Shown: piece after piece, positions 18,942 to 48,404 of the stretch | Layout: every line of letters begins with the position of its first letter | Numbering within the stretch: position 1 is the stretch's first letter | DNA from: an uncultured Chroococcidiopsis sp. | Lineage (GTDB): Bacteria > Cyanobacteriota > Cyanobacteriia > Cyanobacteriales > Chroococcidiopsidaceae | Length of the DNA: 64,000 nucleotides | Assembly (NCBI GenBank): GCA_964248365.1 | Contig: CAXTYC010000024.1 | Location: 15,932-79,931, forward strand | Direction of reading: 5' to 3' | Notes under the pieces: model-generated | The model's database searches: none | Told to the model about the DNA's origin: nothing | Seen by the model: the letters and a program-made list of their open reading frames with translations, nothing else | Translations under genes and position numbers: made by a program

Positions 18942-19580
18942 TTAGAATTTAGAATTTATCTGACGAGCTGCTACCTGGTAACGAAAGATGTATTCTACCA
19001 ACTCTATGTAATTACGTGCGGCGGGGAGTGAAGATCCCCAAACAGTGATGCCGTGATCTCGGATGAGCAAAGCTGGTATTCTAGGGGGAGTAGTGCAAAA
19101 GCGATCGCTAATTTCGGCTGCAATCCTGGGAACTTCTAGATGGTTCTCAAACACAGGCATTCCTACCTGTGGCTTTTCTTCCCACACCCCTAAACCTTTA
19201 AGCATTTCTAGAGAAGGCAATGGTAGCTCATCCCCACTCGTAAAGTGAGAGACTAAATTTGCTTCTATTGAGTGGACATGATAGCAAGCTTGAGCAGAGG
19301 GAAATAGATTGTAAATCGTTTGATGAATTATAGTTTCAGCCGAAGGCTTTACGTCAGCAGATGCTTGCTCTAATACCTTACCGTCAATAGTGACACGGAC
19401 AAAATCGTTTTCTGTTAATTCACCTTTAGATTTACCACTGGCTGTAATCCAAAAGCTATCGTCGGCTTGACGTGCAGACAGATTCCCCGCAGTTCCCACC
19501 ATCCAGTAATGCTTATAGAAATGACGGGCGGCTTCAATTAGTTCAAAGCGTGGATCTGCTTTCTTTAATTCATAATTCAT
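18942..19580 (-). CDS. mtnB: Methylthioribulose-1-phosphate dehydratase
   Basis: Class II aldolase motifs GTAGNLS, ITASG, KPSAET, HVHS, DHG; ATGA overlap with mtnX. Confidence 0.93.
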   Translation of the reverse strand: MNYELKKADPRFELIEAARHFYKHYWMVGTAGNLSARQADDSFWITASGKSKGELTENDFVRVTIDGKVLEQASADVKPSAETIIHQTIYNLFPSAQACYHVHSIEANLVSHFTSGDELPLPSLEMLKGLGVWEEKPQVGMPVFENHLEVPRIAAEISDRFCTTPPRIPALLIRDHGITVWGSSLPAARNYIELVEYIFRYQVAARQINSKF

Positions 19581-20200
19581 AATTGTTTTAAATAATCGCG
19601 CACCTGAAAAAAATCGTTCCAAGGAATGTAGGGCTTTTGTTGTTCATCGAGATATTCTGCTAGGCGATCGCGCGCAAAAACAACAGGTGTTTCAAGAGCC
19701 ATGTTAAGATCAGTAATTGAGTCACCAATAGCAATTTTCTCATCAGCTCGATATTGTGCCATCACTTGCACCTTATTAACCAGTTCCGTACCCCCCTCAT
19801 ATTCAGATACCACCCGTAAATGAGAGCCATTGGTATCAACATCAACAGCATGGATAGCATGAATTCTTGGCAATAAGCTTGCTAAGACAACTTCAACTAT
19901 CCCTCTTAATCCGCCAGAAATCACTACTATAGGCACTTGCTCAGACTCTAGCCAGTTTAGCAATTCTATAAATCCTGGTCGAATTGGCTGGAATTTTGTA
20001 AATTCGATCATTTTGGGGTATGATGCCGACGGTATCGACTCTAAAATTTGCCGAACTCCTTGGCGCAAAGTTAATTGCTGCGCATACATTTGAGGAATTA
20101 TTCTCGCTGAAATTTCCGGCGCAAATCGTTTTAGTACGGCAACAAAAGTTTCTTCTGCTGTAATTGTGCCATCAAAGTCGCAAAAAATAATTCGCTTCAC
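19577..20200 (-). CDS. mtnX: HAD-IB phosphatase (HK-MTPenyl-1-P phosphatase)
   Basis: FCDFDGTIT, ISGG, IGDSITD; position in mtn operon; GTG start at 20200. Confidence 0.88.
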   Translation of the reverse strand: MKRIIFCDFDGTITAEETFVAVLKRFAPEISARIIPQMYAQQLTLRQGVRQILESIPSASYPKMIEFTKFQPIRPGFIELLNWLESEQVPIVVISGGLRGIVEVVLASLLPRIHAIHAVDVDTNGSHLRVVSEYEGGTELVNKVQVMAQYRADEKIAIGDSITDLNMALETPVVFARDRLAEYLDEQQKPYIPWNDFFQVRDYLKQL

Positions 20201-20428
20201 TTCCGCCCTCAAATTCAGTAGATTAGTAATTTTAAGCTGATGTACCTTTAATTTGTAGTGATGATATGCAAGAGGTCCAGAGGCAATTTTTATATGCAAT
20301 AGCTTAGTACTAAAAATCGGCGTTGCACAATATGTTAATAATCTTCCTTAAATCTTCCTTTAGATATTAAATTAGCCTTGGTTTTTCTTAGCGCCTTTGC
20401 GCCTTTGCGTGACACTTCCCATTCAAAT

Positions 20429-21535
20429 TTATCTGGTTCCACTAGTTCCACTAAAACGCGCCAATGCTTCAAAGAACGCCTTGACACCTGCTGCTGCACC
20501 ATCGGGATGATCCATAATACCAGTGCCAGAGTTGAGAATTACATCTTTACCGTAGTCGGCTAGTACTTGGGGAACTATACCAGGATGAATGCCAGCTGAA
20601 GGAACGGGAAAGACATGACGCGATCGCAACTCATCCCGAATTTTAGCTTCCTGGGCAGCCTCAAAGGGCAAACTACCATAGTGCGCCGGATAAAGTACAG
20701 CATCCGCCCCAGCCCTCGCCATCAATGTACCCAAAATGACTGAATATGCAAAACCGTAATCTGGTGCTGCACACAGCGCCCCTGCTAACGCAGGATGAGC
20801 AAAGATTGGTACATTAATTTCCTGATCAGATGCCAAAGCTTCTAAAACAGAAAAGCCGTAGGAAAGTACATTTAGTAGCAGTGCATTTGCCCCTTCGCGC
20901 ACGAGTAGACGCGCCCGCTCTTGTAACTTGTCGGCTCTACCCGTAACATTAACCGCATATAATACCTTTCTACCTTTTTGCTGCTGCAATTCCAGCACTT
21001 TTCGGCAAGCATGGAGACGTTCTAAAGTCGGTGCGACTTCAAGATCGCCCAAAATTTCATCATCTTTGATAATATCAAGTCCCGCCTGGGTTACTTCTTG
21101 TAAAATTGCTGCGTGATCGGTGGCGGTTAATCCCAGTGCTGGTTTAAATATTGCCATCACCAGGGGACGATCAAATACTCCCAAAATATTGCGAATTCCC
21201 CCAATTCCAAACTTGGGTTGTATTCCATAAGTTTCTGGTAGTCGCACCGCTATTACTTTTGCCGCACCTGCCATAGAATATTTGCCAAAGATCATCGTCA
21301 GCAAGCTGGAATTGTCGCCCTCTACATTTGCTAAAGGGAAGCCAATAGTAGCAATGCTATATCCATCAGATTGGGTGTAAACTGATAGCACTTCACCTAG
21401 ATGGGAGCGCAAAACATCTTCTCTATGGGCAAAGCGAGCATTCCAAGTACCAGCCGTTTGCCCAATAGCGATCGCCTTAGCCCCACGCCCTGCATCTGTA
21501 CCTGGAGGAAAGCGGTAATCGACCTCTATTACCAT
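20429..21535 (-). CDS. mtnW: RuBisCO-like protein (form IV), 2,3-diketo-5-methylthiopentyl-1-phosphate enolase
   Basis: IFGKYSM, IFKPALG, DIIKDDE, FAHPA, PVPSAGIHPG, HPDG; mtn operon context. Confidence 0.93.
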   Translation of the reverse strand: MVIEVDYRFPPGTDAGRGAKAIAIGQTAGTWNARFAHREDVLRSHLGEVLSVYTQSDGYSIATIGFPLANVEGDNSSLLTMIFGKYSMAGAAKVIAVRLPETYGIQPKFGIGGIRNILGVFDRPLVMAIFKPALGLTATDHAAILQEVTQAGLDIIKDDEILGDLEVAPTLERLHACRKVLELQQQKGRKVLYAVNVTGRADKLQERARLLVREGANALLLNVLSYGFSVLEALASDQEINVPIFAHPALAGALCAAPDYGFAYSVILGTLMARAGADAVLYPAHYGSLPFEAAQEAKIRDELRSRHVFPVPSAGIHPGIVPQVLADYGKDVILNSGTGIMDHPDGAAAGVKAFFEALARFSGTSGTR

Positions 21536-21538
21536 TTG

Positions 21539-22090
21539 CTATGCAACCACAACTGGACGAAAGTGAATTTCTTTACCTATGTATTCAGGTGTCCAGCCTT
21601 GAGTTCCACTGAAGTAACGTACTGCTTTAACTCGCCCTTCTGGAGTTAAATAAAACCAGTGTTCTGTTCCTGCTGGTACATTAATATATTCCTCTGGCTG
21701 CACTGTCAATTCCACTTGGCTTCCATCAGGTCGCACAAAGCCAAAAATTCCCTCACCGTCAACGATGTAACGTACTTCGTCCTCAGCGTGAGTGTGGATT
21801 TGATTAAACTTAGCCAGCAGTGCATCAAGGTTAAGTAATGGATGCAACACGATTAAGTCACGGGATTGATACCCTAGAGTGCGTTGCAGTTCCTCAAAGT
21901 AATTATCTAAAGCCGTAAGTACTTGTTCTTTCTCCTCCTCATTGAGGTTTTCCTGTGCCAGTAGAGAATGCAACCGAGTATTATCCCCTATACACCAGTG
22001 CTTGATCTGAATATTCAGGGGAGCAAGTTCACGGGCAATATCAACAAGTTGGGTGTAAGTAGTACCGTCTTCAAGTCGTAAAATCGCCAT
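21539..22090 (-). CDS. mtnD: Acireductone dioxygenase (cupin)
   Basis: HTHAEDEVRYIVDGEGIF, VPAGTEHWF, AVRYF. Confidence 0.93.
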   Translation of the reverse strand: MAILRLEDGTTYTQLVDIARELAPLNIQIKHWCIGDNTRLHSLLAQENLNEEEKEQVLTALDNYFEELQRTLGYQSRDLIVLHPLLNLDALLAKFNQIHTHAEDEVRYIVDGEGIFGFVRPDGSQVELTVQPEEYINVPAGTEHWFYLTPEGRVKAVRYFSGTQGWTPEYIGKEIHFRPVVVA

Positions 22091-23794: not shown

Positions 23795-24550
23795 GTTATG
23801 GTGATGATGGTAGCGGCTGAAGCTTGGACCATAGGTAGCTAGAAGGTTTTGGGGAGAAAGAGCAGTATCAGGTGTGCCAGTGCAAACAACTGTTTGGTTG
23901 AGGCACAGGACGCGATCGCAATGGCGGCTAACCATGTCAACATCATGGGAAATCTGCAACACTGTCCAACCTTCCTCGCTTTTAAGTTGATGCAGCAAGG
24001 CATAAAAATCAGCTGCACCTTGCATATCTACACCTGCAAATGCTTCATCTAATACCAATAGTTGACGAGGCATTACCAAGCAGTAAGCTAGTAACACTCG
24101 CTTTAATTCGCCTCCGCTGAGGCTACCGACTGCTTGATGTCTAAGATGGTAGGCATTCACTCGCTCTAATGCCAGTGCGATCGCCGCTTGCTTGTTTCTT
24201 ACCCCTCGAAGCTCCACATATCCCAGCCCCACCAACTCGCCCACACAGATAGGAAAGCTGCGGTCAAAGATAAAATTTTGCGGCATATAGCCTATTTGAT
24301 GGGATAAATCCCCCAACCGTTTGATTGGGCGACCAAAAATTTCAATTCTCCCTGATGTGTGTGGTATTATACCTAAAAGGGCTTGCACCAGGGTACTTTT
24401 CCCCGCTCCATTTGGACCTACTACAGCTGTATCTGTCCCTGGTAACAATTCAAACGAAACATCTCGGACAGCTAAATATTTGTTGTGATAAACTGTTAAA
24501 CCCTCTACCTTCAGGATCGGGTATTGGCTGTTAAATAATTCATTTGGCAT
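23792..24550 (-). CDS. znuC: Zn/Mn ABC transporter ATP-binding protein
   Basis: GPNGAGKST, LSGGE, LVLDE, SHD, His-rich tail. Confidence 0.92.
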   Translation of the reverse strand: MPNELFNSQYPILKVEGLTVYHNKYLAVRDVSFELLPGTDTAVVGPNGAGKSTLVQALLGIIPHTSGRIEIFGRPIKRLGDLSHQIGYMPQNFIFDRSFPICVGELVGLGYVELRGVRNKQAAIALALERVNAYHLRHQAVGSLSGGELKRVLLAYCLVMPRQLLVLDEAFAGVDMQGAADFYALLHQLKSEEGWTVLQISHDVDMVSRHCDRVLCLNQTVVCTGTPDTALSPQNLLATYGPSFSRYHHHHN

Positions 24551-24555
24551 CACGA

Positions 24556-25551
24556 CTACCGACAAGCTGATTCTAAAGTTTGCAGATTGGCTTTCATCGC
24601 CGTGAAGTAATGCTGCGGATCGGTTGACCCTTTTTCCAAGGAATCTAAAGGACGTAGGGTTAAATTCAAATCTTGGGAAAGACTTTTAAGCAACTTATTA
24701 TCCACTCCTGGTTCTCCAAATAATGCCTTGACTTTGTACTGTTTCACAGCCGCTATAGCTCTTTGCACGTCTTGGGGTGACAATTGATCTTCTGGAATTT
24801 CTACTACGGCAACTTGCTTGAGTTGATAGCGTTTAGCTAGGTAAGGATAAGCGTCATGGAAGGTAACGAAAGTGCAGTTAGGATACTGTTGTAGCCTCTG
24901 CTTAAACTCTTTGTCTAAAGCCTGCAACTGCTGGATATAAGCCGTTGCATTCGCCTGGTAAGTTGCTTTGTTTTTCCCATCGGCTGCTATCAAGCCGTCA
25001 CGAATATTTGCCACCTGCTGTTTTGCTAGAAGTGGATCAAGCCAAACGTGAGGATTACCAGCTTTATGTTCGTGTTGTGCCTCTAAAGCAGTGTTTACAA
25101 CGGGTGAAATTGCCTCTAAAGCTTGAATTCCCGAACTTGCATCAATTTGTTTGAGTTGAGAATTTCCGGCATTTTTGACAGTATCATCGAGAAATTCCTC
25201 CAACCCTAAGCCATTTTTAACTAATACATTAGCCGTTGCGATCGCACTCACATTTGCTGGTGTCGCTTGGTATTCATGTACTTCTGTTCCTGGTGGCACT
25301 AAAATTTCTACCTTCGCGGATTCTCCCGCCACTGCTTTGGTAAACCAATACATCGGCAAAAAAGTAGTTACTACTTCGAGTTGCTTTGATGGTGATGCTG
25401 TTTCCCCCGCCCCAGATGTAGGCGACGAATTTGATGAATTGCAGCCAGTGGTAGCTGACAACACTAGTATTGGCAGTAGGGCTATCCTCTGCCTACCCGC
25501 TTGATGCCAACTCTTGCGGCTCAAATTTCTCCTTTGATTGGCGATCGCCAT
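24556..25551 (-). CDS. znuA: Zn/Mn ABC transporter substrate-binding lipoprotein
   Basis: EVHEY, NPHVWLDP, FHDAYPY; lipobox TTGC. Confidence 0.92.
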   Translation of the reverse strand: MAIANQRRNLSRKSWHQAGRQRIALLPILVLSATTGCNSSNSSPTSGAGETASPSKQLEVVTTFLPMYWFTKAVAGESAKVEILVPPGTEVHEYQATPANVSAIATANVLVKNGLGLEEFLDDTVKNAGNSQLKQIDASSGIQALEAISPVVNTALEAQHEHKAGNPHVWLDPLLAKQQVANIRDGLIAADGKNKATYQANATAYIQQLQALDKEFKQRLQQYPNCTFVTFHDAYPYLAKRYQLKQVAVVEIPEDQLSPQDVQRAIAAVKQYKVKALFGEPGVDNKLLKSLSQDLNLTLRPLDSLEKGSTDPQHYFTAMKANLQTLESACR

Positions 25552-25577
25552 CGCTGTTTTTTCACCCACTCACCCCA

Positions 25578-25592
25578 TGATAATGAATATCA
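25578..25592. promoter_or_regulatory. Zur box upstream of znuA
   Basis: TGATAATGAATATCA, one mismatch from the cyanobacterial 7-1-7 TGATAATNATTATCA. Confidence 0.75.
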
Positions 25593-25677
25593 TTTTATCT
25601 AAAAATCAAATATATTCTTGCTTTATTTTTCTCTCCTACGGGGGATGTTTAATCATAAAATTTGAGGAATAGAAGTT

Positions 25678-25874
25678 TACTTGTAAAGCTCGCCTGTACG
25701 AGTAGGGACTGGTTGTTTGAATCAGTTACCAGTTACCAGTTACCAACTACCAACTACCAGTTCTATTACTGACATTCAATTATCTTGTGAGTTAAGGTAT
25801 TGTAGCGAACAATGTTTATTAGTACATTAGTACTATAATACGCCAAAAGCTTCGCTACTTTTACCTATCAAGTA
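25678..25874 (+). ncRNA. Candidate retron msr-msd non-coding RNA
   Basis: Short flanking IR TACTTG (25678)/CAAGTA (25869); AAGC with candidate branch G25688; hairpins CTCG..CGAG and ACTGGTT..AATCAGT; long hairpin AGGTA-TT-GTAGCGAA..TTCGCTAC-TTT-TACCT (25795-25866) abutting the RT start. Confidence 0.5.
25821..25839 (+). promoter_or_regulatory. LexA-box match overlapping a TATAAT -10 element upstream of the RT
   Basis: AGTAC-ATT-AGTACT (25821-25834) fits RGTAC-N3-DGTWCB; TATAAT at 25834-25839. Confidence 0.55.
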
Positions 25875-27277
25875 TGTCCGAGCAGCCCCGTACCCGCCAG
25901 GAACTTTACGATCGCATTCGTTCCACTTCCAAACAAGAATTTATCCTTGAAGAAATGATTCGCTTGGGATTTTGGTCTGCACAAGGTCAAATTCCAGAAG
26001 ATCCAGCAGATGAAATTCGGCGGATAGGAGAACTGCGACGAGAACTAGAGCAACTACGGCAGGAGAATGCCCGTCTTTTCAACGAAAAAGCCCTACGCAG
26101 GCAGTTACTAAAGCAACGACTAGCCGAATTGCGGCATAAGCAGCAGGAAACTAAGGAACGAAGAGAACGGGAAAGACTTGAAAGAGCAGCAGCTTGGCAA
26201 CAAAGAAAACAGCAACAAATCCTTTATCTCGGTGAAAACGTCTCAGGTGGACTCAATCATACCAATTGCAATCAGGAGCGTTTAAATAGCTATGGCTTAC
26301 CAGTTTTAGCCACAGCTGAACAAATTGCCACTGCGATGGGAATTAGTGTGGGACAACTGAGATTTTTGGCTTTTTCTCGCCAGACTTCTACCATAACCCA
26401 CTATATTCGCTTCAAAATTCCCAAAAAAACAGGTGGAGAGCGGTTAATCTCAGCCCCCATGCCGCGCTTAAAAAATGCACAACATTGGATACTTGTCAAT
26501 ATATTAGAAAAACTGGAACTGCACGATGCGGCACATGGTTTTCGACGCGATCGCTCTATCGTTAGCAATGCTCAACCCCATGTAGGGCGTGACATAATCA
26601 TCAACTTTGACCTCAAAGACTTCTTTCCCTCAATTTCCTATCAACGAGTTAAAGGGCTATTCCAATCCTTTGGCTACACTGAAGCAGCAGCCACAATTTT
26701 CGCCTTGCTATGTACCCAACCAGAAATCGAAGAAGTAGAACTAGACGGCAAAACCTACTATGTAGCATTGACACAACGACATTTACCCCAAGGTTCCCCA
26801 GCTTCACCAGCCATTACCAACCTACTATGTCGCCGCCTAGATCGACGCTTAACTCTTATGGCTGAATCACTAGGCTTTATTTATACCCGCTATGCAGACG
26901 ACCTGACATTTTCTGCTTCTGGTGACAGCCTGCGACATATCTGCAATATCCTCAGACGCACCGAGTCAATTGTGGCTCACGAAGGATTTACCATCAACGA
27001 ACAAAAGACGAGAATCTTACGCAAAAATCGGCAACAAGAAGTCACAGGGATTGTAGTCAACACACATCCCAACATATCCAAAGAAACTCTTCATAGCTTC
27101 CGCGCCACCCTATATCAAATTGAAAAAGACGGAATAGAAGGTAAACGCTGGGGAAACTCTACCGATGTGATAGCTGCAATTGCAGGCTTTGCTAATTTTG
27201 TTGCTATGGTTAATCCTGAAAAAGGAGCGAAGTTGCAACAGCAAGTCAAATTAATTAAAGACAAATACAGAACGTAG
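25874..27277 (+). CDS. Retron-type reverse transcriptase with N-terminal coiled-coil extension
   Basis: IPKKTGGERLISAP, AHGF, region X NAQPH, DLKDFFPSI, LPQGSPASP, YADD, region Y VTG. Confidence 0.93.
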   Translation: MSEQPRTRQELYDRIRSTSKQEFILEEMIRLGFWSAQGQIPEDPADEIRRIGELRRELEQLRQENARLFNEKALRRQLLKQRLAELRHKQQETKERRERERLERAAAWQQRKQQQILYLGENVSGGLNHTNCNQERLNSYGLPVLATAEQIATAMGISVGQLRFLAFSRQTSTITHYIRFKIPKKTGGERLISAPMPRLKNAQHWILVNILEKLELHDAAHGFRRDRSIVSNAQPHVGRDIIINFDLKDFFPSISYQRVKGLFQSFGYTEAAATIFALLCTQPEIEEVELDGKTYYVALTQRHLPQGSPASPAITNLLCRRLDRRLTLMAESLGFIYTRYADDLTFSASGDSLRHICNILRRTESIVAHEGFTINEQKTRILRKNRQQEVTGIVVNTHPNISKETLHSFRATLYQIEKDGIEGKRWGNSTDVIAAIAGFANFVAMVNPEKGAKLQQQVKLIKDKYRT

Positions 27278-27319
27278 TGCTTTGCCTCGCTCTCAAGCTG
27301 AGCCTGGGAGCAAGAATAT

Positions 27320-28012
27320 CTCATCATCGTCAGCACTCTTTCAGCCCATTCGAGCAGTTCTGAATTTATCCCTTGAGGTTGGCGATCAAATTGAATACCA
27401 TGCTCTGCCAACACGGTTAGAGCGTGGGACGATATGGAAGTACCCTTAAACTTTTGACACTCCCACCGAGCCTTCGGGGGATTCTTCATTCAACAAGTCC
27501 ACTTAGTTTAAACCCCTTGCGGTATCTAAACCAGAGGTGGTTCTCTCCTGAAGCGTTAACTTTCGGTCTGCCCGACCGTAGTTGCATTACTGCAAAACTT
27601 TGCTTGATTTAGCTACAAAGCTAAGTACTGTTCGTTTGGTGTGGGTGAATCTTTTACCTACTTTCAGGAGCTACTATTGTAGCAACCGGAACAACAAAGT
27701 AGAACCAGCTAGATTCAATTACCAAGGTGCAGCGCGTTAACCGTTTAGGTTACTAGGTTTTTTGAGAGGTTAATTACCTTGCCTGTGTGCCAAAATATAC
27801 AACATAATCGGGTAGGAACGCAAGCCCCTGCCCGATATTCATCCCCCGATCCTTCGGGGTCTTCTATCGGTTGAAAGATAAAGTCCAGCCGATCGCACCT
27901 GAATTTCACCGCAGCTCTGGTCTAACCTATTTTCTTCAATCTTGTGCTGAAATAGCGCCTCTGCCATTGGGTTACGACAAGTGTTACCAGTACAAACAAA
28001 TAGAACTCGCAT
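27320..28012 (-). pseudogene. Low-molecular-weight protein phosphatase (YwlE/ArsC superfamily) split by a mini-IS and 3'-truncated
   Basis: 28012-27878 encodes MRVLFVCTGNTCRNPMAEALF..RSAGLY; continues at 27453 as KFKGTSISSHALTVLAEHGI..LEWAERVLTM; no C-terminal DP motif. Confidence 0.88.
27454..27877 (-). mobile_element. Non-autonomous IS200/IS605-family miniature element with TnpB omega-RNA-like right end
   Basis: Left hairpin AAGACCCCGAAGGATCGGGGGATGAAT; right hairpin GAATCCCCCGAAGGCTCGGTGGGAGTGTCAA; inserted 3' of TTTAT with no target duplication; removal restores the host reading frame. Confidence 0.85.
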
Positions 28013-28062
28013 TTAGCAATTGGTAATTGGTGATTGGTAATTGGTAGTTGGGAAAAGGGAAG

Positions 28063-29159
28063 CTGATCATGTGGTCATTGTCAGTACCACAGCTAGGAGC
28101 AACTTTGGCAGCAACCTTGGTAGGCTACGAAGCTGGGTTGTTAGATCAAAGAATATTAAACAGCGTCATTGTTTTATTGTTGGTAACGGCAACTTTAGGA
28201 CTCCTATTTACTAGTCGCGTAGCCCCAAGTTTGGTCGTAGCGGCAAATAATCTTGAGCCAGAGACAACGCCGCCTGATTGGAATACCCAGCCAGCAGACA
28301 GCCCATTTAAGGTAGTAGTTCCAGTCTATAAACCCCAAGACACAGCAGTATTTGATTGAAATGGCAGCTTTATTCGCACGTCAGGCGGGGGGGGCAGGTA
28401 GTACCATTAGCTGATCGCCAAAGCAACTGCCCATATGGATGCGCCCCAGTTAGAAGCTGCTTTCCAACAAGGAGAGTTACTTCTAGACAATGCCACTGCT
28501 ATTAGCCAACAACAAGGCATGGAGGCTGAACCTGTATTGCGAATTGACGATGCGATCCCACAGGGAATTTGTCGAGCAAGTCGAGAGCAAAAAGCAAGTT
28601 TAATTGTTCTAGGCTGGGGTCAACGTACTGGCTTACGCGCTCGCTTGTTTGGTAATGTAATTGATAGCGTTTTGGCTGAGGCTCATTGTCCTGTTGCGGT
28701 GTCACGCTTAGTGAGTTCCCCCACCCAAATGCGGTGCATTTTAGTACCATTGGAAAATCTCACTTCCCAAGCACTGCGTAAAGTCAAGTTTGCCCATAGA
28801 ATAGCCGCTGCAACTGGAGCATCAGTTACAGTCTTACACATCTGCCCTCCCAATAGCTTGGATGCGATCGCAACTGGCGCTACTATTTGCTAAATTATCT
28901 TTGCCAAATCAATTAGAAATTCAAATCCTTCCTCACGACAATATATTTCAAGCAATTCTAGAGGTAGCCGAAGGATGTGATGAACGTGGTCTTACGTTCT
29001 GTTCGCCCTCGCACCAGTACAAGTAGCGCTTTAGTAGTTGGCGGTGTGACAACCCAACGTGTGAGTGCACTTACCTGTTCCCTCGTCATGCTAGGAGAAC
29101 CGCAACCTGTTGCCACAGCAGCTTTTGCCCTGACTCGCCCCCTAAAAACGTTGCTTTGA
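28063..29159 (+). pseudogene. Cation:proton antiporter with USP-like C-terminal domains, 3' remnant
   Basis: MWSLSVPQLGATLAATLVGY..NSVIVL, RARLFGNVIDSV..HCPVAV; frameshifts near 28335, 28390 and 28880; 5' half missing. Confidence 0.8.
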
Positions 29160-29657
29160 GCAACCGATTGTCCTAAGTACAAGGACATAAAAAAATGGCT
29201 CTTTTGTGCAAAAGGCGAAAGGATTGTGCGGTAAGAGTTATCTAGTTTGACAAGCGCCATTTTTTTGCCTTTCTCCTCCTTAGTAAGTAGGTGGACATAA
29301 TTAAACGTAAAATGCTTAATTCTAAGAAATAAAAAGGTAAAGTACTTACCTTCTGCCTTCTACCTTCTACCTTCTACCTTCTACTTAAAATCTTTGCTAA
29401 ATCTTTAAGGTGGTGTGTATTTACTAAATTTTGAGCGGTAAAAGATACTTTGGGAATAATTGTTTGTTAAATTTTTTAAATTAGGGAATAATCAGTTAAG
29501 CAGTTAGTTGAATAAACAACAAATGCGCCTTGTCAGGCGTTGCTAATATAACAACTGCCTTTCCGTGCTGTAGGGCAAGATTCTCGCAAACGCATACGCA
29601 CTTATTGAGATGCATTGCCAACCCTAATTGAAACACTTGTAACAAACTAGAAAATCT

Positions 29658-30608
29658 ATGAGAATTTTGGTCACTGGTGGCGCTGGGTTTATTGGTTCTC
29701 ACCTAATAGATCGGCTGATGGCTAATGGACACGAAGTTATTTGCTTGGATAACTTTTATACTGGTCACAAACGCAACATCGTTAAATGGTTAGATCATCC
29801 ATACTTTGAACTTATCCGCCACGACATCACTGAACCAATTCGATTAGAAGTCGATCAAATCTATCATCTAGCTTGTCCTGCTTCTCCAGTACACTACCAG
29901 TACAACCCAGTCAAAACCGTCAAAACCAATGTGATGGGAACAATGAATATGCTGGGACTGGCAAAGCGAGTTAAAGCTCGCTTCCTTCTAGCCTCAACTT
30001 CGGAAGTGTATGGCGATCCCGAAGTACATCCTCAAACAGAAGAATACCGAGGAAATGTAAATCCTATCGGCATTCGCTCATGCTATGACGAAGGCAAGCG
30101 AATTGCCGAAACCCTAGCTTTTGACTATCATCGGCAAAATGATGTAGATATTCGGGTAGCGCGCATCTTCAATACCTATGGTCCAAGGATGTTGGAAAAC
30201 GATGGACGGGTAGTGAGTAACTTAGTAGTGCAAGCTTTAAGGAATATTCCTTTAACAGTGTATGGCGACGGTTCTCAAACCCGCAGCTTCTGCTACGTCT
30301 CTGACTTGGTAGAAGGACTAATGCGGCTAATGAATGGCGACTACATTGGTCCTGTCAACTTGGGAAATCCAGAGGAATACACAATTTTACAACTGGCTCA
30401 AAACGTCCAGAACCTAATCAATCCTGATGCCCAAATCAAATTTGCTCCCCTACCTCAAGACGATCCGCGTCGTCGCCGTCCAGATATTACTAAGGCGAAA
30501 ACTTGGTTAAATTGGCAGCCTACAGTTGGGCTGTCACAAGGTTTAAAACTTACAGTAGAAGATTTCAGGCAACGCATTCAAAGTGAGCAGCCAGCTTCTT
30601 TAGCTTAG
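29658..30608 (+). CDS. UDP-glucuronic acid decarboxylase (UDP-xylose synthase)
   Basis: [42 protein letters not shown]. Confidence 0.95.
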
Positions 30609-34009: not shown

Positions 34010-34930
34010 TTAAGTCATGGGTGGCGTATAGTCGGGCATTTGTCTTGCTACACCCAGCAGGTAGTCAAAATAGGTACGAGCAACAACAGACAATTGTTTG
34101 CCTGCTGGATATACCATGTACCAATAACGGCGAATTGGAAAGTATTCTACATCCAAAATTGCTAACTGGCTGGGATATCCTTCGGTTGATATGGTATGGC
34201 GAGATAAAACTGAGATTCCTAAACCACCAGCGATTGCCTGCTTAATTGCCTCATTACTACCCAACTCCAGCTTGACTTTGAGAGTAACTGAGTGTTCATC
34301 AAACAGTTTTTGCACGGCTGTGCGAGTACCTGAACCTGGTTCTCGCAAAATAAAAGGCTCTTCACTCAAACGTTGGATTGAGATCTTTTTTTCTTTCGCC
34401 AGAGGATGATTGATTGGTGCTAATACTATCAATGGGTTTTCCAAAAACGGCTGGCAGGTGATATCGAGATGCTCTGGCAGTTGACTCATAATATACAAGT
34501 CGTCCAGATTCTCTTTCAGACGTTCCACAATCCCTGAGTGGTTCGTCACTTGTAAAGCAATATCGATTCCTGGGTAAAGCTGGCAAAATGGACCTAATAA
34601 ACGCGGTACGAAATATTTAGCAGTTGTAATCACTGCTAAGCGTAGTTTTCCCTGCTTCATCCCTTTTAAGTCTGCTACCGTCATTTCAAACTGGGAAATC
34701 CTTTCAAATATTTCCCGACAGGTAGCAAACAGTTCCTGTCCCGCTTGGGTGAGGTAAAGCCGTTTACCTACTTGTTCAAACAATGGCAAACCAACTGCCT
34801 TGGTTAGCTGCTTCACCTGCATAGAGACAGTTGGTTGAGTCAAGAACAGTTCTTCCGCCGCGCGAGTAAAGCTACCATTGCGCGCGGCAGCTTCAAACAC
34901 CTTTAACTGATGGAGCGTCGCCTGTTTCAC
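34010..34930 (-). CDS. cmpR: LysR family CbbR-type regulator (CmpR/CcmR group)
   Basis: ATLHQLKVF..SFTRAAEELFLTQPTVS, REPGSGTR, LGSNEAIKQ; downstream of ccmO. Orthology (cmpR vs ccmR) is inferred from synteny. Confidence 0.8.
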   Translation of the reverse strand: MKQATLHQLKVFEAAARNGSFTRAAEELFLTQPTVSMQVKQLTKAVGLPLFEQVGKRLYLTQAGQELFATCREIFERISQFEMTVADLKGMKQGKLRLAVITTAKYFVPRLLGPFCQLYPGIDIALQVTNHSGIVERLKENLDDLYIMSQLPEHLDITCQPFLENPLIVLAPINHPLAKEKKISIQRLSEEPFILREPGSGTRTAVQKLFDEHSVTLKVKLELGSNEAIKQAIAGGLGISVLSRHTISTEGYPSQLAILDVEYFPIRRYWYMVYPAGKQLSVVARTYFDYLLGVARQMPDYTPPMT

Positions 34931-35058
34931 GGCAATTCACTCAGCAGACTTCGTATATAATTATAACTCTATAACATCTATTAAAAACAATGACTTTTAT
35001 TTATGAAATTTTTAGGTTAGTATCTAAACAACTGAAAGAGCGTAAGATGACTTCCATC

Positions 35059-35164
35059 AAAGCGTTGCACAATTATAGGGGATTTGTTGATTTATATCCT
35101 GTATTTGGGCTGGTTCCAGATAGGGAAAATTGCCCTCATGCCGCCCCATTATGTGCAACGCTTT
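35059..35164. mobile_element. MITE-like element with 13-bp terminal inverted repeats
   Basis: AAAGCGTTGCACA..TGTGCAACGCTTT; related half-ends at ~18379 (GCAACGCCGA) and ~20318 (TCGGCGTTGC). Confidence 0.6.
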
Positions 35165-35263
35165 TTCTTAGGTTTTAGGGGCGTGCGTGAGAGCGGGGGA
35201 AGCGCAGGGAAGCTGGGGGAGAATAATTAATTACGAATTACGAATTACGAATTACGAATTAAT

Positions 35264-36043
35264 TTAAATTTCTTCCTTGAGTGGTACGGGCAAAGTTGTT
35301 AGATCTGGCAATTGCACAAGTTCAGTTTCAGTTTCCTTTTCCTTTTCCTTGATGGTGACTGGCAATTGTAAGGGCTGTGGCTGCTCGATCCAGCAACTAG
35401 CAAGGGGCAGAGTTTGTTCCAAATCATCCAACGGTCTGGGAATTACCATTACGGCATTTAATTCCCCAATCTTTTCTGCCTCAAACATTCCTGCCTCAAC
35501 TGCTACGGCGACATTAGACACAGAGCCGCGAATAATAACTGTACACAAGCCATCTCCAATCCTTTCATAGGATGCTAGCTGGACATCAGCAGCCTTAAGC
35601 ATGGCATCAGCTGCCCCTACCATTGCTGGAAATCCCCGCGTTTCCAACAGCCCAACAGCTTGATTACTCAAACGACTATAACCACCTCTTTGAGTCAATT
35701 GATGCAGGCGATTGCCAATCGGTAGCACTGCCTCTAGATTGGGTAGAGGACGGGGAATGACCAATGTGGAAACTAGCTGACCAAAGCCTTCAGCCGTTTC
35801 TGCACCGATTTTTACAGCGAGGCGGACATCAGCAGTACCACCACGCACGATCGCAGTACAGTAGCCACTACCAATTTTTTCATAACCTACCAGGGTGACT
35901 CCAGCGGTCTTAAGCATCATATCTGCTGTCCCAACGATTGCTGGAAAACTGCGGGTAGATACTAAACCCAAAGCCATGTCCTGAAAGCTATCTCTATGTT
36001 TCTCTTGTCCAGAGAGGACAAGCCCTTGATTTTCTGCCTGCAT
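35264..36043 (-). CDS. ccmO: Carboxysome shell protein with tandem BMC domains
   Basis: Two BMC domains (STRSFPAIVGTADMMLK; ETRGFPAMVGAADAMLK); follows ccmN. Confidence 0.92.
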   Translation of the reverse strand: MQAENQGLVLSGQEKHRDSFQDMALGLVSTRSFPAIVGTADMMLKTAGVTLVGYEKIGSGYCTAIVRGGTADVRLAVKIGAETAEGFGQLVSTLVIPRPLPNLEAVLPIGNRLHQLTQRGGYSRLSNQAVGLLETRGFPAMVGAADAMLKAADVQLASYERIGDGLCTVIIRGSVSNVAVAVEAGMFEAEKIGELNAVMVIPRPLDDLEQTLPLASCWIEQPQPLQLPVTIKEKEKETETELVQLPDLTTLPVPLKEEI

Positions 36044-36239
36044 TTTAGACCTACTCGCTGCCCACACGCCCATTATCAACTAAGAATTTGAGATTTGAGA
36101 TTTGTTTTTTGGTTCACGTCCCAGAATGAACAGAAATAAATTCGGGCATCACCAATTTTGCCTATCCTCAAGCTCCAAAGGGCAACTAGCGTTAGTTTAA
36201 TCTTTGAATGGACAATTTAAAATCTACGCATCGGTTGAT

Positions 36240-36914
36240 TTATGTACTTTCAGGTGGAGATGAACCGTCTTGCCCTTGCTGGCTTAGGGAGCGATTGTAG
36301 GGAAGCAAAGTTGATATTAGCTGTGACAACGAGGCTTTTCCATATACCACTGGAGTAGCAGTAGTTGGGGCTGATTCGGGTTGGGGTTGAATTTGTTCAG
36401 ATTCTAGCTCTGACTGACTGGGAGAGTCAGTGTCGAGGGCTTCTGTATTGGTGGATTGTGGTTGGGCGTTGGAGCCACTAGTATCTTCCTGCCGAGAACC
36501 TGGTGCTACAAGTTGCCCCCGTTCAGGCTGGGTGTGGTTGGTGGATTGTGGTTGGGCGTTGGAGCGACTAGTGTCTCCCAGCAGAGAACCTGGTGCTACA
36601 ATTTGCCCCCGTTCAATTGAACAATTTAGTATTGTTGTGGCTGAACCGATGCAAGCATTTGCCCCAATTTTACCCGCACCAACCACCAAAACCCCTGCCC
36701 CAAGGATTGCCCCTGTCTCGATTTCCAGAGTACCGTCATGAGCGTGTAACACAGCCCCCATGCCGATACACACTCCAGCACAGATGTTAATCCGACTGTT
36801 TGGAGTTGCAATGAGCATCACTCCGCTTGCGATCGCTGCATTTGGATCAATCATTACCTCGCCACTTACGTAGGAATTAAAGTTGGTAATCAGATGTAGT
36901 GGCGACACAGACAT
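36240..36914 (-). CDS. ccmN: Carboxysome assembly protein
   Basis: Hexapeptide-repeat N-terminus, low-complexity linker, C-terminal VYGK..LISTLLP encapsulation peptide. Confidence 0.92.
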   Translation of the reverse strand: MSVSPLHLITNFNSYVSGEVMIDPNAAIASGVMLIATPNSRINICAGVCIGMGAVLHAHDGTLEIETGAILGAGVLVVGAGKIGANACIGSATTILNCSIERGQIVAPGSLLGDTSRSNAQPQSTNHTQPERGQLVAPGSRQEDTSGSNAQPQSTNTEALDTDSPSQSELESEQIQPQPESAPTTATPVVYGKASLSQLISTLLPYNRSLSQQGQDGSSPPEST

Positions 36915-37000
36915 TAGGATTGCAACCTCGTACGTTCCGAAAATAATCGGATGAGACAGTAGCCATTATAGTAGGCATTCATTACGAGCAAGTGTAGATC

Positions 37001-38665
37001 CTATTGACCTGGGCGTTGGATAATTGTTTCCATTACCCGTTTTTTCGCTTTGGGTTCAATACCAAACAAGCGGACATATTCGCCTTCGTGATTTGCTATG
37101 CACTGCTCCACAGCGGCGATCGCTTCTGATTCTGAGCGAGTATCAATTGGACTGCAACTTTGCCATGAACCAGTGCGGAAACGGCGCTGATCTACGTGTT
37201 CTGTGCCAATCTTGTATCCACCAGCCAAGATATTGCGAACTTGCTCTAAAATTTCTGGACTCAGCTGGGAACTTGTACTCGCCCTTGTACTCGCCCTTGT
37301 ACTATTCATTGTACTTTGGCTACTGGTATTCGGATATGCTGTTGCTGTTCTAGCTGAACCAGAAACCTGATCTTCTGGGCGTTGAATAATTGTTTCCATT
37401 ACACGCCGCTTACCTTTGGGATCGATACCAATTAGGCGCACGTACTCGCCAGCGTATTCGGCTAGATTTGCCTCAATTGCTGCCAATACCGTCGATGCTT
37501 GCCCAGAATCAATCGCACCGCAGCTTTGCCAAGACCCAGTACGAAAGCGGCGCTGATCTACGTGTTCTATACCAATCTTGTATCCTGAAGCTAGAATATT
37601 GCGTACCTGCTCGACAATATCTGCACTCAGTCCTGTTGTAGTACTTGTAGTATTACTGAAATTACTTACTGCTGGGGCAGGAACAGATGTTTTAGTAGTG
37701 GTTGGCTGGTAACTGCCGTCTGGACGTTGGATAATTGTTTCTAAAACCCGTTTTTTCGCCTTGGGGTCAATGCCAAATAAGCGGACATATTCGCCTTCGT
37801 GTTCAGCCAGACAAGCTTCTAAAGCGGCGATCGCTTCTGACTGCGAACGAGTATCAATCGGACTACAACTTTGCCATGTACCAGTACGGAAACGGCGCTG
37901 ATCTACGTGTTCTGTCCCAATCTTGTATCCACCTGCCAAAAGATTACGTACTTGCTCTAGGGCATCGGCACTTAGGCGATCGCTTCTCACTGTACCCCCA
38001 TTTCCATTGCTGCGATTTAATCCATTACCTGTATAAGAGCCTGCTAACTGATTGCGGAACGTAGTAATGCTTGCCTCATCTTTAGCAGAAAGATAACTAT
38101 GACGCAAGGCATCATTCATGCCTACTACGTGACGGGCAATTTCTTGGTCTACCTTTTGCACATTGGGTAAACTGTCAGCTTGCTGCTGATTAGTAATAAC
38201 TGCTCCCGAAGCCACATACTTGCCTGGAGGAATTTCTACATCTTGGATCAGGGCGTGCATCATCACAATACAGCCATTACCCACCCGCGCATTAAATACT
38301 GTCGAGCGAAAGCCAATAAAGCAGTCGTCGCCAATATAAGCAGGTCCATAAATTAAAGCCATGTGGGTAATAGAAGAATTTTTCCCTATCCACACTGAGT
38401 ATTGGTTTTTGTCGTCTCCAATTACTTGACCTTGCTCCAAACCTCGAATTACTACACCATCGAGTATGTTAGTGCCTTCACCAATATAAAAAGGACTACC
38501 TTCATCGGCGCGAATTGATGTCCCTGGTGCAATCATCACATTCGGACCTATCCGAACATCCCCAATAATGTTAGCTAAGGAATGTACGTAGGCGGTTTGA
38601 TGAATTTTTGGCTCTGCCAAATTTTTCGACCTAGTCGGCGGGGCAGCAAAGCTGCGGGCTACCAT
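37001..38665 (-). CDS. ccmM: Carboxysome protein CcmM (gamma-CA-like domain plus three RbcS-like repeats)
   Basis: [18 protein letters not shown]; three [11 protein letters not shown](S/T)WQSC repeats. Confidence 0.97.
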
Positions 38666-47113: not shown

Positions 47114-47422
47114 TCACATTGACGCAACACATCTAACCGAGCGGATCTCCATCACATCAGAAACATAGCACGTACCCCCAAATTTATTGAGGATAGGTCT
47201 AATGTTTTCTACGACTGGTTTGATTTTATCTGGATGACAAAAAGCAAGCACATAGACATTATCAAGCATGGTCATGTCAAAATCTTCTGTTCCCCTCAGT
47301 CCTTTGCCTGCAACATCCCGAATCACAGCGTGTCCATGAACGCCTCCCCGCTCTAAACCATCTAGAATTTTGCCAAGTTCAACTGAATTGGCGATAATTT
47401 CTATCTTCTTAACTAGATGCAT
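47114..47422 (-). CDS. sbtB: PII-like regulator of SbtA
   Basis: KKIEII..GHAVIRDVAGKG..GGTCYVSD; directly after sbtA. Confidence 0.88.
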   Translation of the reverse strand: MHLVKKIEIIANSVELGKILDGLERGGVHGHAVIRDVAGKGLRGTEDFDMTMLDNVYVLAFCHPDKIKPVVENIRPILNKFGGTCYVSDVMEIRSVRCVASM

Positions 47423-47426
47423 AATG

Positions 47427-48404
47427 TTATCTCCACAGCATATTAATCCCGTATAAATATAGAGGAATCCCCACAATAATATTAAAGGGAAAAGTTACTG
47501 CCAGGGCAGTAGAAACATACAGACTGGGGTTTGCTTCTGGAACAGTCATCCTCATAGCAGCGGGAACAGCAATGTAAGAGGCACTTGCACACAAAACGGC
47601 AAATAACAGCGCATCTCCCTGCGGCATCCCAATAAATTTGGCAATCAGTAGCCCAATTCCTGCATTTACTATTGGAACTAGTAGGGCAAATGAAATTAGG
47701 AAAAATCCAGTTTTTTGCAAGTCTTTAATTCTTCTAGCAGCAACCAATCCCATATCTAGTAAGAAAAAGGTGAGGATGCCGTAAAACATTCCTTGGGTAA
47801 AGGGTTCTAGAACCTGCCAGCCGTGTTCTCCTGTCAGTACTCCGATTAGCAGGCTACCAACTAAGAGAAAGACAGAGCTATTTAGAAAAGCCTCTTGCAG
47901 AACTTCAGACCAGGAAAAGTCTCGCTTCCCCTGATCGGAGGTGAATACATTAACTAAGATCAGACCAACTATAATGGCTGGAGACTCCATCAAGGCAAGA
48001 GCTGCTACCATGTAGCCATCAAAATTAATCCCAAGCTCGGTCAAAAATGCTCCAGCTGTGATAAAGGTGACAGCACTGATTGAGCCATAAGTTGCCGCGA
48101 TCGCTGCTGCATCATAGATGTCAAGCTTTAGTTTGAGAATAAAAAAGGTGTAGATTGGGACAATACAAGCCATCAAGATCGCTGCTAAGAGCGTTAGTAG
48201 CACTTCCTGATTGATGCCACTTTTGATCAGTTCAACGCCTCCCTTAAACCCAATTGCAAATAGCAGGTAGAGCGAAAGGAGTTTGGGAACTGGTGCAGGA
48301 ATTTCCAGATCCGACTTGACAAAGACAGCTACCATTCCTAGAAAGAAAAATAGAACTGGCGGATTGAGGATGTTAGACAAAATTAGGCTTACATCCATTT
48401 CCAC
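47427..48404 (-). CDS. sbtA: Sodium-dependent bicarbonate transporter family permease
   Basis: IGFKGG, YGSISAVTF, MESPAI, SASYIAVPA, TFPFN. Confidence 0.92.
   Translation of the reverse strand: MEMDVSLILSNILNPPVLFFFLGMVAVFVKSDLEIPAPVPKLLSLYLLFAIGFKGGVELIKSGINQEVLLTLLAAILMACIVPIYTFFILKLKLDIYDAAAIAATYGSISAVTFITAGAFLTELGINFDGYMVAALALMESPAIIVGLILVNVFTSDQGKRDFSWSEVLQEAFLNSSVFLLVGSLLIGVLTGEHGWQVLEPFTQGMFYGILTFFLLDMGLVAARRIKDLQKTGFFLISFALLVPIVNAGIGLLIAKFIGMPQGDALLFAVLCASASYIAVPAAMRMTVPEANPSLYVSTALAVTFPFNIIVGIPLYLYGINMLWR

Follow-up and report, generated by a model that had tools for sequence, protein, structure and literature searches.

A type XIII retron reverse transcriptase and its flanks

The window, meaning the whole stretch of 64,000 nucleotides of contig C24 that was analysed, carries an intact reverse transcriptase (RT) gene of 467 codons at 25874-27277 on the plus strand, without internal stop. 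The region X motif NAQPH (26567-26581, aa 232), the catalytic YADD (26891-26902, aa 340) and the VTG that starts region Y (27041-27049, aa 390) were all located on the plus strand in a frame open throughout, as the preliminary description of the locus had reported for an intact retron-type RT. NAxxH of region X is kept in 91 of 91 aligned RT sequences and YADD is invariant in RT alignment A5, while region Y is given as the msr-recognition region of E. coli retrons in the available text of PMC6868368. Profile searches with PADLOC settled whether the RT belongs to the retron clades, since RT_XIII matched residues 1-465 (E 9.7e-201, 666 bits) against 333 bits for the next-best family and 210 bits for the RT_Ec107-like profile, identifying a type XIII (clade 10) retron RT. 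The predicted core has the RT of retron Ec86 as its best Foldseek match (7v9x, E 5.9e-24, 34% identity). A genome-wide search revealed a single copy of an RT_XIII-type RT in the host, and this gene is the sole retron part within the window.

The N-terminal extension, about aa 1-130 (25874-26263, plus strand), lies within the RT_XIII profile, and the span of that profile over residues 1-465 indicates that a long N-terminus is normal for type XIII RTs. AF2 secondary structure places one long helix of about 70 residues at aa 44-114. The RT was thus rightly described as a long-N-terminus enzyme of the myxobacterial kind, but the suggestion that its N-terminal domain substitutes for an effector fails on the same profile, of which the N-terminus is a standard part. 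In the accessible part of Simon et al. 2019 (PMC6868368), an extended N-terminus is reported for the myxococcal RTs, which cluster there with those of cyanobacteria; the Mx162, Mx65, Sa163 and Ne144 RTs are cases of such an extension. The dN/dS of the extension is 0.07-0.20 against six relatives, and we consider it likely to be a partner-binding arm.

The divergent neighbour of the RT gene is znuA (24556-25569, minus strand; Pfam ZnuA, E 7e-80), as stated before, and we place it outside the system. A link of the RT to the zinc operon was considered and rejected, as no znuA homologue stands beside the RT in the 18 related loci compared. The earlier statement that no WGR, SWIM or HEAT gene adjoins the RT also holds within the window, and so does the contrast between the intact RT and its decayed right flank, where a repeat remnant cuts an LMW phosphatase/ArsC-type gene (27452-28012, outside the system). 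The repeat, at about 27452-27882, has a 76% copy on contig C53; the LMWPc fragment (27875-28012) matches Pfam with E 9e-12 over 46 aa and its frame stops after 57 aa; and a 152-aa Usp ORF lies in the same flank. The stretch 27452-29260 also holds fragments of a probable antiporter-Usp gene, the antiporter label being our assumption. Farther away, the window contains what we take, from the translations, to be a methionine-salvage-type cluster with a RuBisCO-like protein (18942-22090) and, at 34010-38665, carboxysome genes preceded by a LysR regulator. The host is a cyanobacterium, as the carboxysome and related genes of the window indicate.

The region upstream of the RT gene

The 200 nt upstream of the RT had been proposed as msr/msd, flanked by TACTTG (25678) and CAAGTA (25869) and containing AAGC (25686), with G25688 as the branch point. 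The letters are indeed present, but their meaning as a non-coding RNA is unsupported. Positions 25660-25890 (231 nt) fold with z -1.10, which 33 of 200 shuffles equal, and 25676-25825 with z -0.05; moreover, a 6-bp inverted pair of comparable layout precedes 668 of 2756 long ORFs of the genome (24%). On these and the further grounds below the msr/msd reading was rejected, and G25688 is left without support as a branch point. A covariance model of the msr-msd RNA found on contig C3 (see below) had no match in the window at E ≤ 1, and an Rfam scan of 24000-30000 returned two chance eukaryotic matches, far below threshold. An array of five YTACCAR heptamers at 25726-25760 (plus strand) belongs to a genome-wide repeat outside the retron, with 226 arrays of at least three units in the genome and blastn matches on many contigs.

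The hairpin described close to the ATG does exist (25800-25872, z -3.38, a window chosen after the fact), with arms at 25802-25809 and 25851-25858 on the plus strand, but its conservation in homologue leaders fails. When eight homologue RT leaders were folded, a comparable structure was seen in one of them, that of L035 (z -5.2), and the other seven gave z -0.1 to -1.6. Conservation upstream of the RT consists instead of a palindrome at 25821-25834, enclosed by this hairpin, which runs into a TATAAT hexamer (25834-25839), with nothing conserved beyond the promoter motif.

These data bear on a self-contained, effector-less retron, in which the msr/msd would be the 200 nt upstream or the N-terminal domain would be the effector. 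The local hairpin (z -3.4) and the 6-bp flanking inverted pair are real, the L035 leader folds at the same place, and stand-alone msr-msd-RT cassettes have been described for clades 2 and 11 (PMC7736814, as far as its accessible text goes). We nevertheless judge this reading very improbable, and with it the stand-alone option of the preliminary description, as the whole region folds like its shuffles, a quarter or so of upstream regions hold such a pair, conservation ends at the promoter motif, the N-terminus belongs to the family profile, and the cognate RNA and both partner genes lie on C3.

The palindrome is a LexA-type box, 53 nt before the RT ATG and overlapping the TATAAT hexamer. It fits the cyanobacterial LexA consensus AGTACWNWTGTACT given in the available text of Li et al. 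2010 (PMC3091678), and a box of the AGTAC-N4-GTACT type is present within about 150 nt of the RT start codon. Perfect AGTAC-N4-GTACT sites number seven in the genome, one of which is the box before the RT. The host lexA (-45) and ssb (-27) genes are preceded by boxes of the same type and recA by one with two mismatches; no LexA-type box was found upstream of uvrA. Allowing one mismatch, the box occurs in seven of eight members of the RT's own clade, and in 6 of 80 related RT loci versus 14 of 2762 background upstream regions; by this distribution across sequences, the box before the RT is a subclade trait. A sigma-70 promoter scan upstream of the RT found no complete site. We infer that the RT has its own promoter, with a LexA operator at 25821-25834. 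The stretch CTGACA-18 nt-TAAGGT at 25769-25798, upstream of the box and common to L035 and L071, may be a second promoter.

Partner genes and msr-msd RNA on a second contig

Among the first 11 full-length RT homologues, four have WGR-HEAT and SWIM genes just upstream. A genome-wide search for such partners, which the preliminary description had suggested as a check, found both intact on contig C3 of the same genome (70% and 87% identity to the orthologues, respectively), so that the epithet 'effector-less' has to be dropped and the option of a distant partner, mentioned in the same place, turns out to be the apt one. The WGR-HEAT gene occupies C3:49367-52537 (minus strand; WGR_XIII, E 0; Pfam WGR and HEAT_2; cluster 216 type) and the SWIM gene C3:47629-49263 (= L049:9630-11264; minus strand; SWIM_XIII, E 6.7e-248; cluster 114 type). 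They are unlinked to the RT on C24, at least 84 kb apart as a lower bound from the contig extents. The unit ends convergent with recF (L049:8133-9627) and sits among housekeeping genes, presumably IF2-like and rodA-like from their translations, not in a defence island.

An element of 240 nt follows the SWIM stop codon immediately; it is conserved in 9 of 11 SWIM loci and found elsewhere in the genome for the other two. Its layout is that of an msr-msd RNA, bounded by inverted arms and containing a short hairpin in the msr and a long, fully paired msd stem (core C3:47412-47597, outer arms 47605-47619 and 47389-47406, minus strand), an assignment based on fold and covariation. The host RNA folds with z -5.93, equalled by none of 200 shuffles. 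In an alignment of nine sequences, 94.4% of cells are paired and 26 of the 54 pairs have compensatory changes, which none of 500 shuffles matched, pairing dropping to 30-42% when the structure was slid; the structure was derived from the same alignment on which it was scored, which favours the score. The RNA model has a single match in the host genome, on C3. In the host RNA the outer a1/a2 arms match imperfectly, and the 3' arm could instead fold into a hairpin that resembles a terminator. The G of a TTGC motif, just inside a short covarying stem, is invariant in 51 of 51 listed RNA matches, and the motif reads TAGC in three Nannocystis records. In view of this invariance, the neighbouring covarying stem and the TAGC rule for the branch G cited in PMC6868368 (partial text), we take C3:47593, the G of TTGC, as the candidate branch G.

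The SWIM protein has the DEDE acidic motif and Zn finger described by Mestre et al., Dx7Dx4Ex30-32Dx37E plus CxCx12CxH, with D139, D147, E152, D185, E223, C516, C518, C531 and H533 invariant in 34 sequences. Its predicted model (pLDDT 57 overall, a low-confidence model) places a winged helix at 382-448, and the part at about 142-364 resembles PCNA and other sliding clamps (Foldseek E 4e-4; Z 10.7, rmsd 3.1 over 132 residues). We treat the clamp likeness as a lead only, because half of 142-364 has pLDDT below 50. A sequence search of solved structures returned nothing significant for SWIM, structure searches with the model gave no transposase-like fold among the matches listed, and Atlas look-ups returned SWIM or unnamed clusters only. 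The RT-SWIM complex prediction scored 0.29 (mark 0.32), which speaks neither for nor against such a complex.

A LexA-type box with one mismatch lies before the WGR gene here, at C3:52566-52579, and before that of two close relatives; among 29 other loci it was found in one, which is one of these two relatives. With boxes before both RT and WGR, the two halves may be co-induced.

The split layout among relatives and the proposed working of a dispersed retron

The ancestral order WGR-HEAT, SWIM, msr-msd, RT persists in many relatives. Among 80 related RT loci the RNA was present in the fetched DNA in 45, adjacent to the RT in about 25 and up to 8 kb off, with inserted genes, in about 20. Leaving out 13 loci with less than 6 kb of upstream DNA and no RNA match, and counting L127 (RNA 6.7 kb downstream) and L110 (partial match at a contig end) as having RNA in the locus, 22 of 67 informative loci were without a nearby ncRNA although 6 kb or more of DNA upstream was available. 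All 22 of these split genomes hold SWIM and WGR elsewhere, with two SWIM genes cut by contig ends and one interrupted, and 20 hold the RNA elsewhere; in the two remaining genomes the SWIM gene breaks off just where the RNA would be expected.

Joint retention recurred in other samples; all these counts, those above included, are tallies rather than independent observations, the genomes being akin and some recurring between searches. In 40 genomes selected for an incomplete SWIM/RNA unit in the RT locus, SWIM, WGR and an RNA match were each detected in 39 (two RNA matches partial). A set of 61 genomes had SWIM and WGR in 11 of 12 with a full-length RT and in none of the 49 others. In an even sample of 301 genomes, SWIM occurred in 12 of 12 with a full-length RT and in none of five with an N-terminally different RT, and one of 284 without such an RT gave a weak SWIM match (27%). 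In G037, a genome of 500 contigs, RT and RNA are present but neither SWIM nor WGR gave a match.

In the ten genomes whose only RT_XIII-like protein lacks the N-terminal arm, searches for SWIM and WGR found nothing, and the RNA model gave two weak partial matches but no full one; this links the arm with the partners, though purely as an association. Five same-genus genomes (L044-L048, in G001-G004 and G006; L042) encode an RT_XIII-like protein of 348 aa that lacks the arm, always at the same site, flanked by genes for a HAD hydrolase and a Band 7 protein, and one copy is broken; SWIM, WGR and type XIII RNA were not found in these five genomes. Another RT_XIII-like open frame, of about 570-620 aa, has a different N-terminus with a weak TPR match in L043 (8779-10482, genome G033) and recurs in G110, G135 and G333; the four genomes showed no SWIM or WGR.

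Could the split stem from assembly or binning, the RT contig coming from another organism or a join having collapsed? The assembly is a draft of 102 contigs and the halves lie on different ones, yet the RT is found 37-42 kb into a contig of 80 kb and the other unit 47 kb into one of 274 kb, completeness is 99.97 with contamination 0.84, and the host RT and SWIM have the same nearest relatives. In addition, the split is also seen on complete chromosomes, which argues directly against an artefact. On the complete chromosome of L091 the RT maps near 3.63 Mb, the WGR-SWIM-RNA unit at 5.19 Mb; in G012, G031 and G286 the RT and the unit are separated by 0.6-3.4 Mb on one contig, and gaps of 0.6-3.4 Mb are found on complete or near-complete chromosomes in L091, L111, G012, G031 and G286. 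The four parts lie on four contigs in G053. We give an artefact next to no credence.

On the RT tree, split RTs fall in many places, interleaved with linked ones (FastTree, modest support of deep nodes), and from this topology the split layout appears to have had repeated origins. The RT dN/dS was 0.08-0.18 in seven split-split pairs and 0.07-0.15 in eight linked pairs, ratios by which split RTs remain under purifying selection; against the nearest relatives of the host RT, dS exceeds 1.2 and the ratios there average over pre-split time. RT and SWIM distances correlate with r 0.62 in 21 split genomes versus r 0.84 in 36 linked ones, a correlation of the sort that shared descent alone yields.

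Selection speaks to a further alternative, that an operon broke apart recently and left two silent or decaying remnants, and that the RT does not work with the C3 RNA. The right-hand neighbours of the RT have decayed, and most same-genus genomes are without the system (SWIM in 0 of 6). Against this stand three full-length ORFs, the fully paired msd stem, dN/dS near 0.1 kept in sister pairs that are both split, and both partner genes kept in 22 of 22 well-flanked split genomes. We hold such decay to be unlikely.

The reading that we favour, with good though not complete confidence, is that the RT is a type XIII retron RT separated from its unit, a dispersed architecture acting in trans. The RT would be expressed from its own promoter, bind the msr of the C3 transcript, prime at the invariant G of TTGC (C3:47593) and reverse-transcribe the long hairpin to yield a branched msDNA of some 130-150 nt, after which RT-msDNA would join the SWIM and WGR-HEAT proteins, probably via the N-terminal helix. 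A box before the RT is also present in the linked relatives L031, L076 and L090, between RNA and RT, which suggests that the internal promoter probably preceded the split. Such a promoter could have permitted the RT to move without loss of expression, and in this lineage may have made separation harmless. In another locus (L033 of G037) a gene for an SOS-response-associated peptidase (SRAP; L033:486-1499) lies between RNA and RT, and the promoter of that RT carries a perfect LexA-type box.

For the job of the complex we lean slightly towards a retron toxin-antitoxin sensor, in which msDNA would be the bait, SWIM the effector, as its invariant DEDE acidic motif, winged helix and Zn finger would suit, and WGR-HEAT a scaffold or DNA sensor. 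In characterised (Ec86-type) retrons, the effector needs the RT-msDNA as its antidote. Genomes that have SWIM and no RT are nearly absent, as would fit an effector with this need. A housekeeping role in DNA damage or stress is the less probable but still serious candidate, and some other function has a small share of our expectation. Broader and rather doubtful is the proposal that in filamentous and related cyanobacteria the type XIII retron has turned into a dispersed, host-regulated module, whose four parts can each have a locus of their own and are held by function alone and wired to LexA here, and that its msDNA complex would act in DNA-damage sensing or processing rather than, or besides, phage defence; the clamp-like middle of SWIM and the DNA-binding domain of WGR are the grounds on which the complex may sense or process DNA damage.

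The closest known systems are the type XIII (clade 10) retrons Retron-Nex2 (Ne144), Mxa1 (Mx162), Mxa2 (Mx65) and Sau1 (Sa163) (clade 10 as type XIII: Mestre et al. 2020, PMC7736814, partial text). They share with the host the RT profile with its extended N-terminus, a WGR/HEAT partner, a SWIM partner that bears the DEDE motif and the CxCx12CxH finger, and an msr-msd that is bounded by inverted repeats and contains a short msr hairpin and a long msd stem; our RNA model also matches beside the RT in four Nannocystis records (151-159 bits). Unlike in these cassettes, the RT gene of the host lies apart from the RNA and from both partners, with a putative promoter of its own that includes a LexA-type box. 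In the accessible text of PMC7736814, retrons are contiguous msr-msd-RT cassettes with a partner gene up- or downstream of the RT; as the host RT is neither contiguous with the msr-msd nor linked to the partner genes, we file the system as a dispersed variant, not as a canonical type XIII cassette. Stand-alone cassettes of clade 2 (Ec107-like) and clade 11 likewise have no effector gene beside the RT, but they keep the RNA beside it, whereas that of the host lies elsewhere, with the effectors; an msr-msd directly upstream and a lack of partner genes, by which such retrons are recognised, were not found here. Retron-Eco1 (Ec86), a tripartite defence system, offers the closest solved RT fold and the model for an RT-msDNA that restrains an effector; it differs in clade, RNA and effector, in being one operon and in having no N-terminal arm.

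Surveys have sought RNA and effector near the RT, in keeping with the definition and cataloguing of retrons as contiguous cassettes. The accessible text of PMC7736814 reports a search near the RT and vertical inheritance of type XIII; that of a SPIRE survey of 2026 (PMC13712802) counts 50 type XIII RTs out of 143 with SWIM next to them and uses neither the word 'orphan' nor 'in trans'. Khan et al. 2024 (PMC10849725, likewise the available part) tested several cyanobacterial type XIII retrons, with clade 10 among the best RT-DNA producers, and raised a distant RNA for clade 3 and 4 RTs without a detectable one. Our literature search, covering journals outside subscription and partly in excerpt, returned no description of naturally split type XIII or LexA-controlled retrons and, in the text consulted, no type XIII phenotype, a negative limited by the supplement of PMC7736814, which may list cyanobacterial RTs without RNA or partners. 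The present analysis adds how often the split occurs, that it seems to have arisen repeatedly, the dispersal over four contigs and the boxes of LexA type.

If about one third of cyanobacterial type XIII RTs (22 of 67) act from a distant locus, neighbourhood-based tools would call them orphans, and retron RTs without a detectable RNA would deserve a genome-wide re-search. That the four parts are kept together almost without exception, although unlinked, is an argument for a single functional complex made of them and for a system that acts as a host gene set, not as a mobile island. Since split strains are naturally occurring and culturable, each part can be deleted separately, making the role of type XIII (myxobacterial-type) msDNA directly testable.

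Some relatives carry additional genes or copies. VWA-domain and WGR/beta-propeller genes lie downstream of the RT at L031:4937-8420, L032:3347-8247 and L035:10409-14434, the WGR/beta-propeller gene having no match in the host genome. A second WGR-like gene is found in some of the genomes, and L139, L143, L118, L138, L137, L109, L103 and L060 hold two msr-msd RNA copies per locus, the second more divergent.
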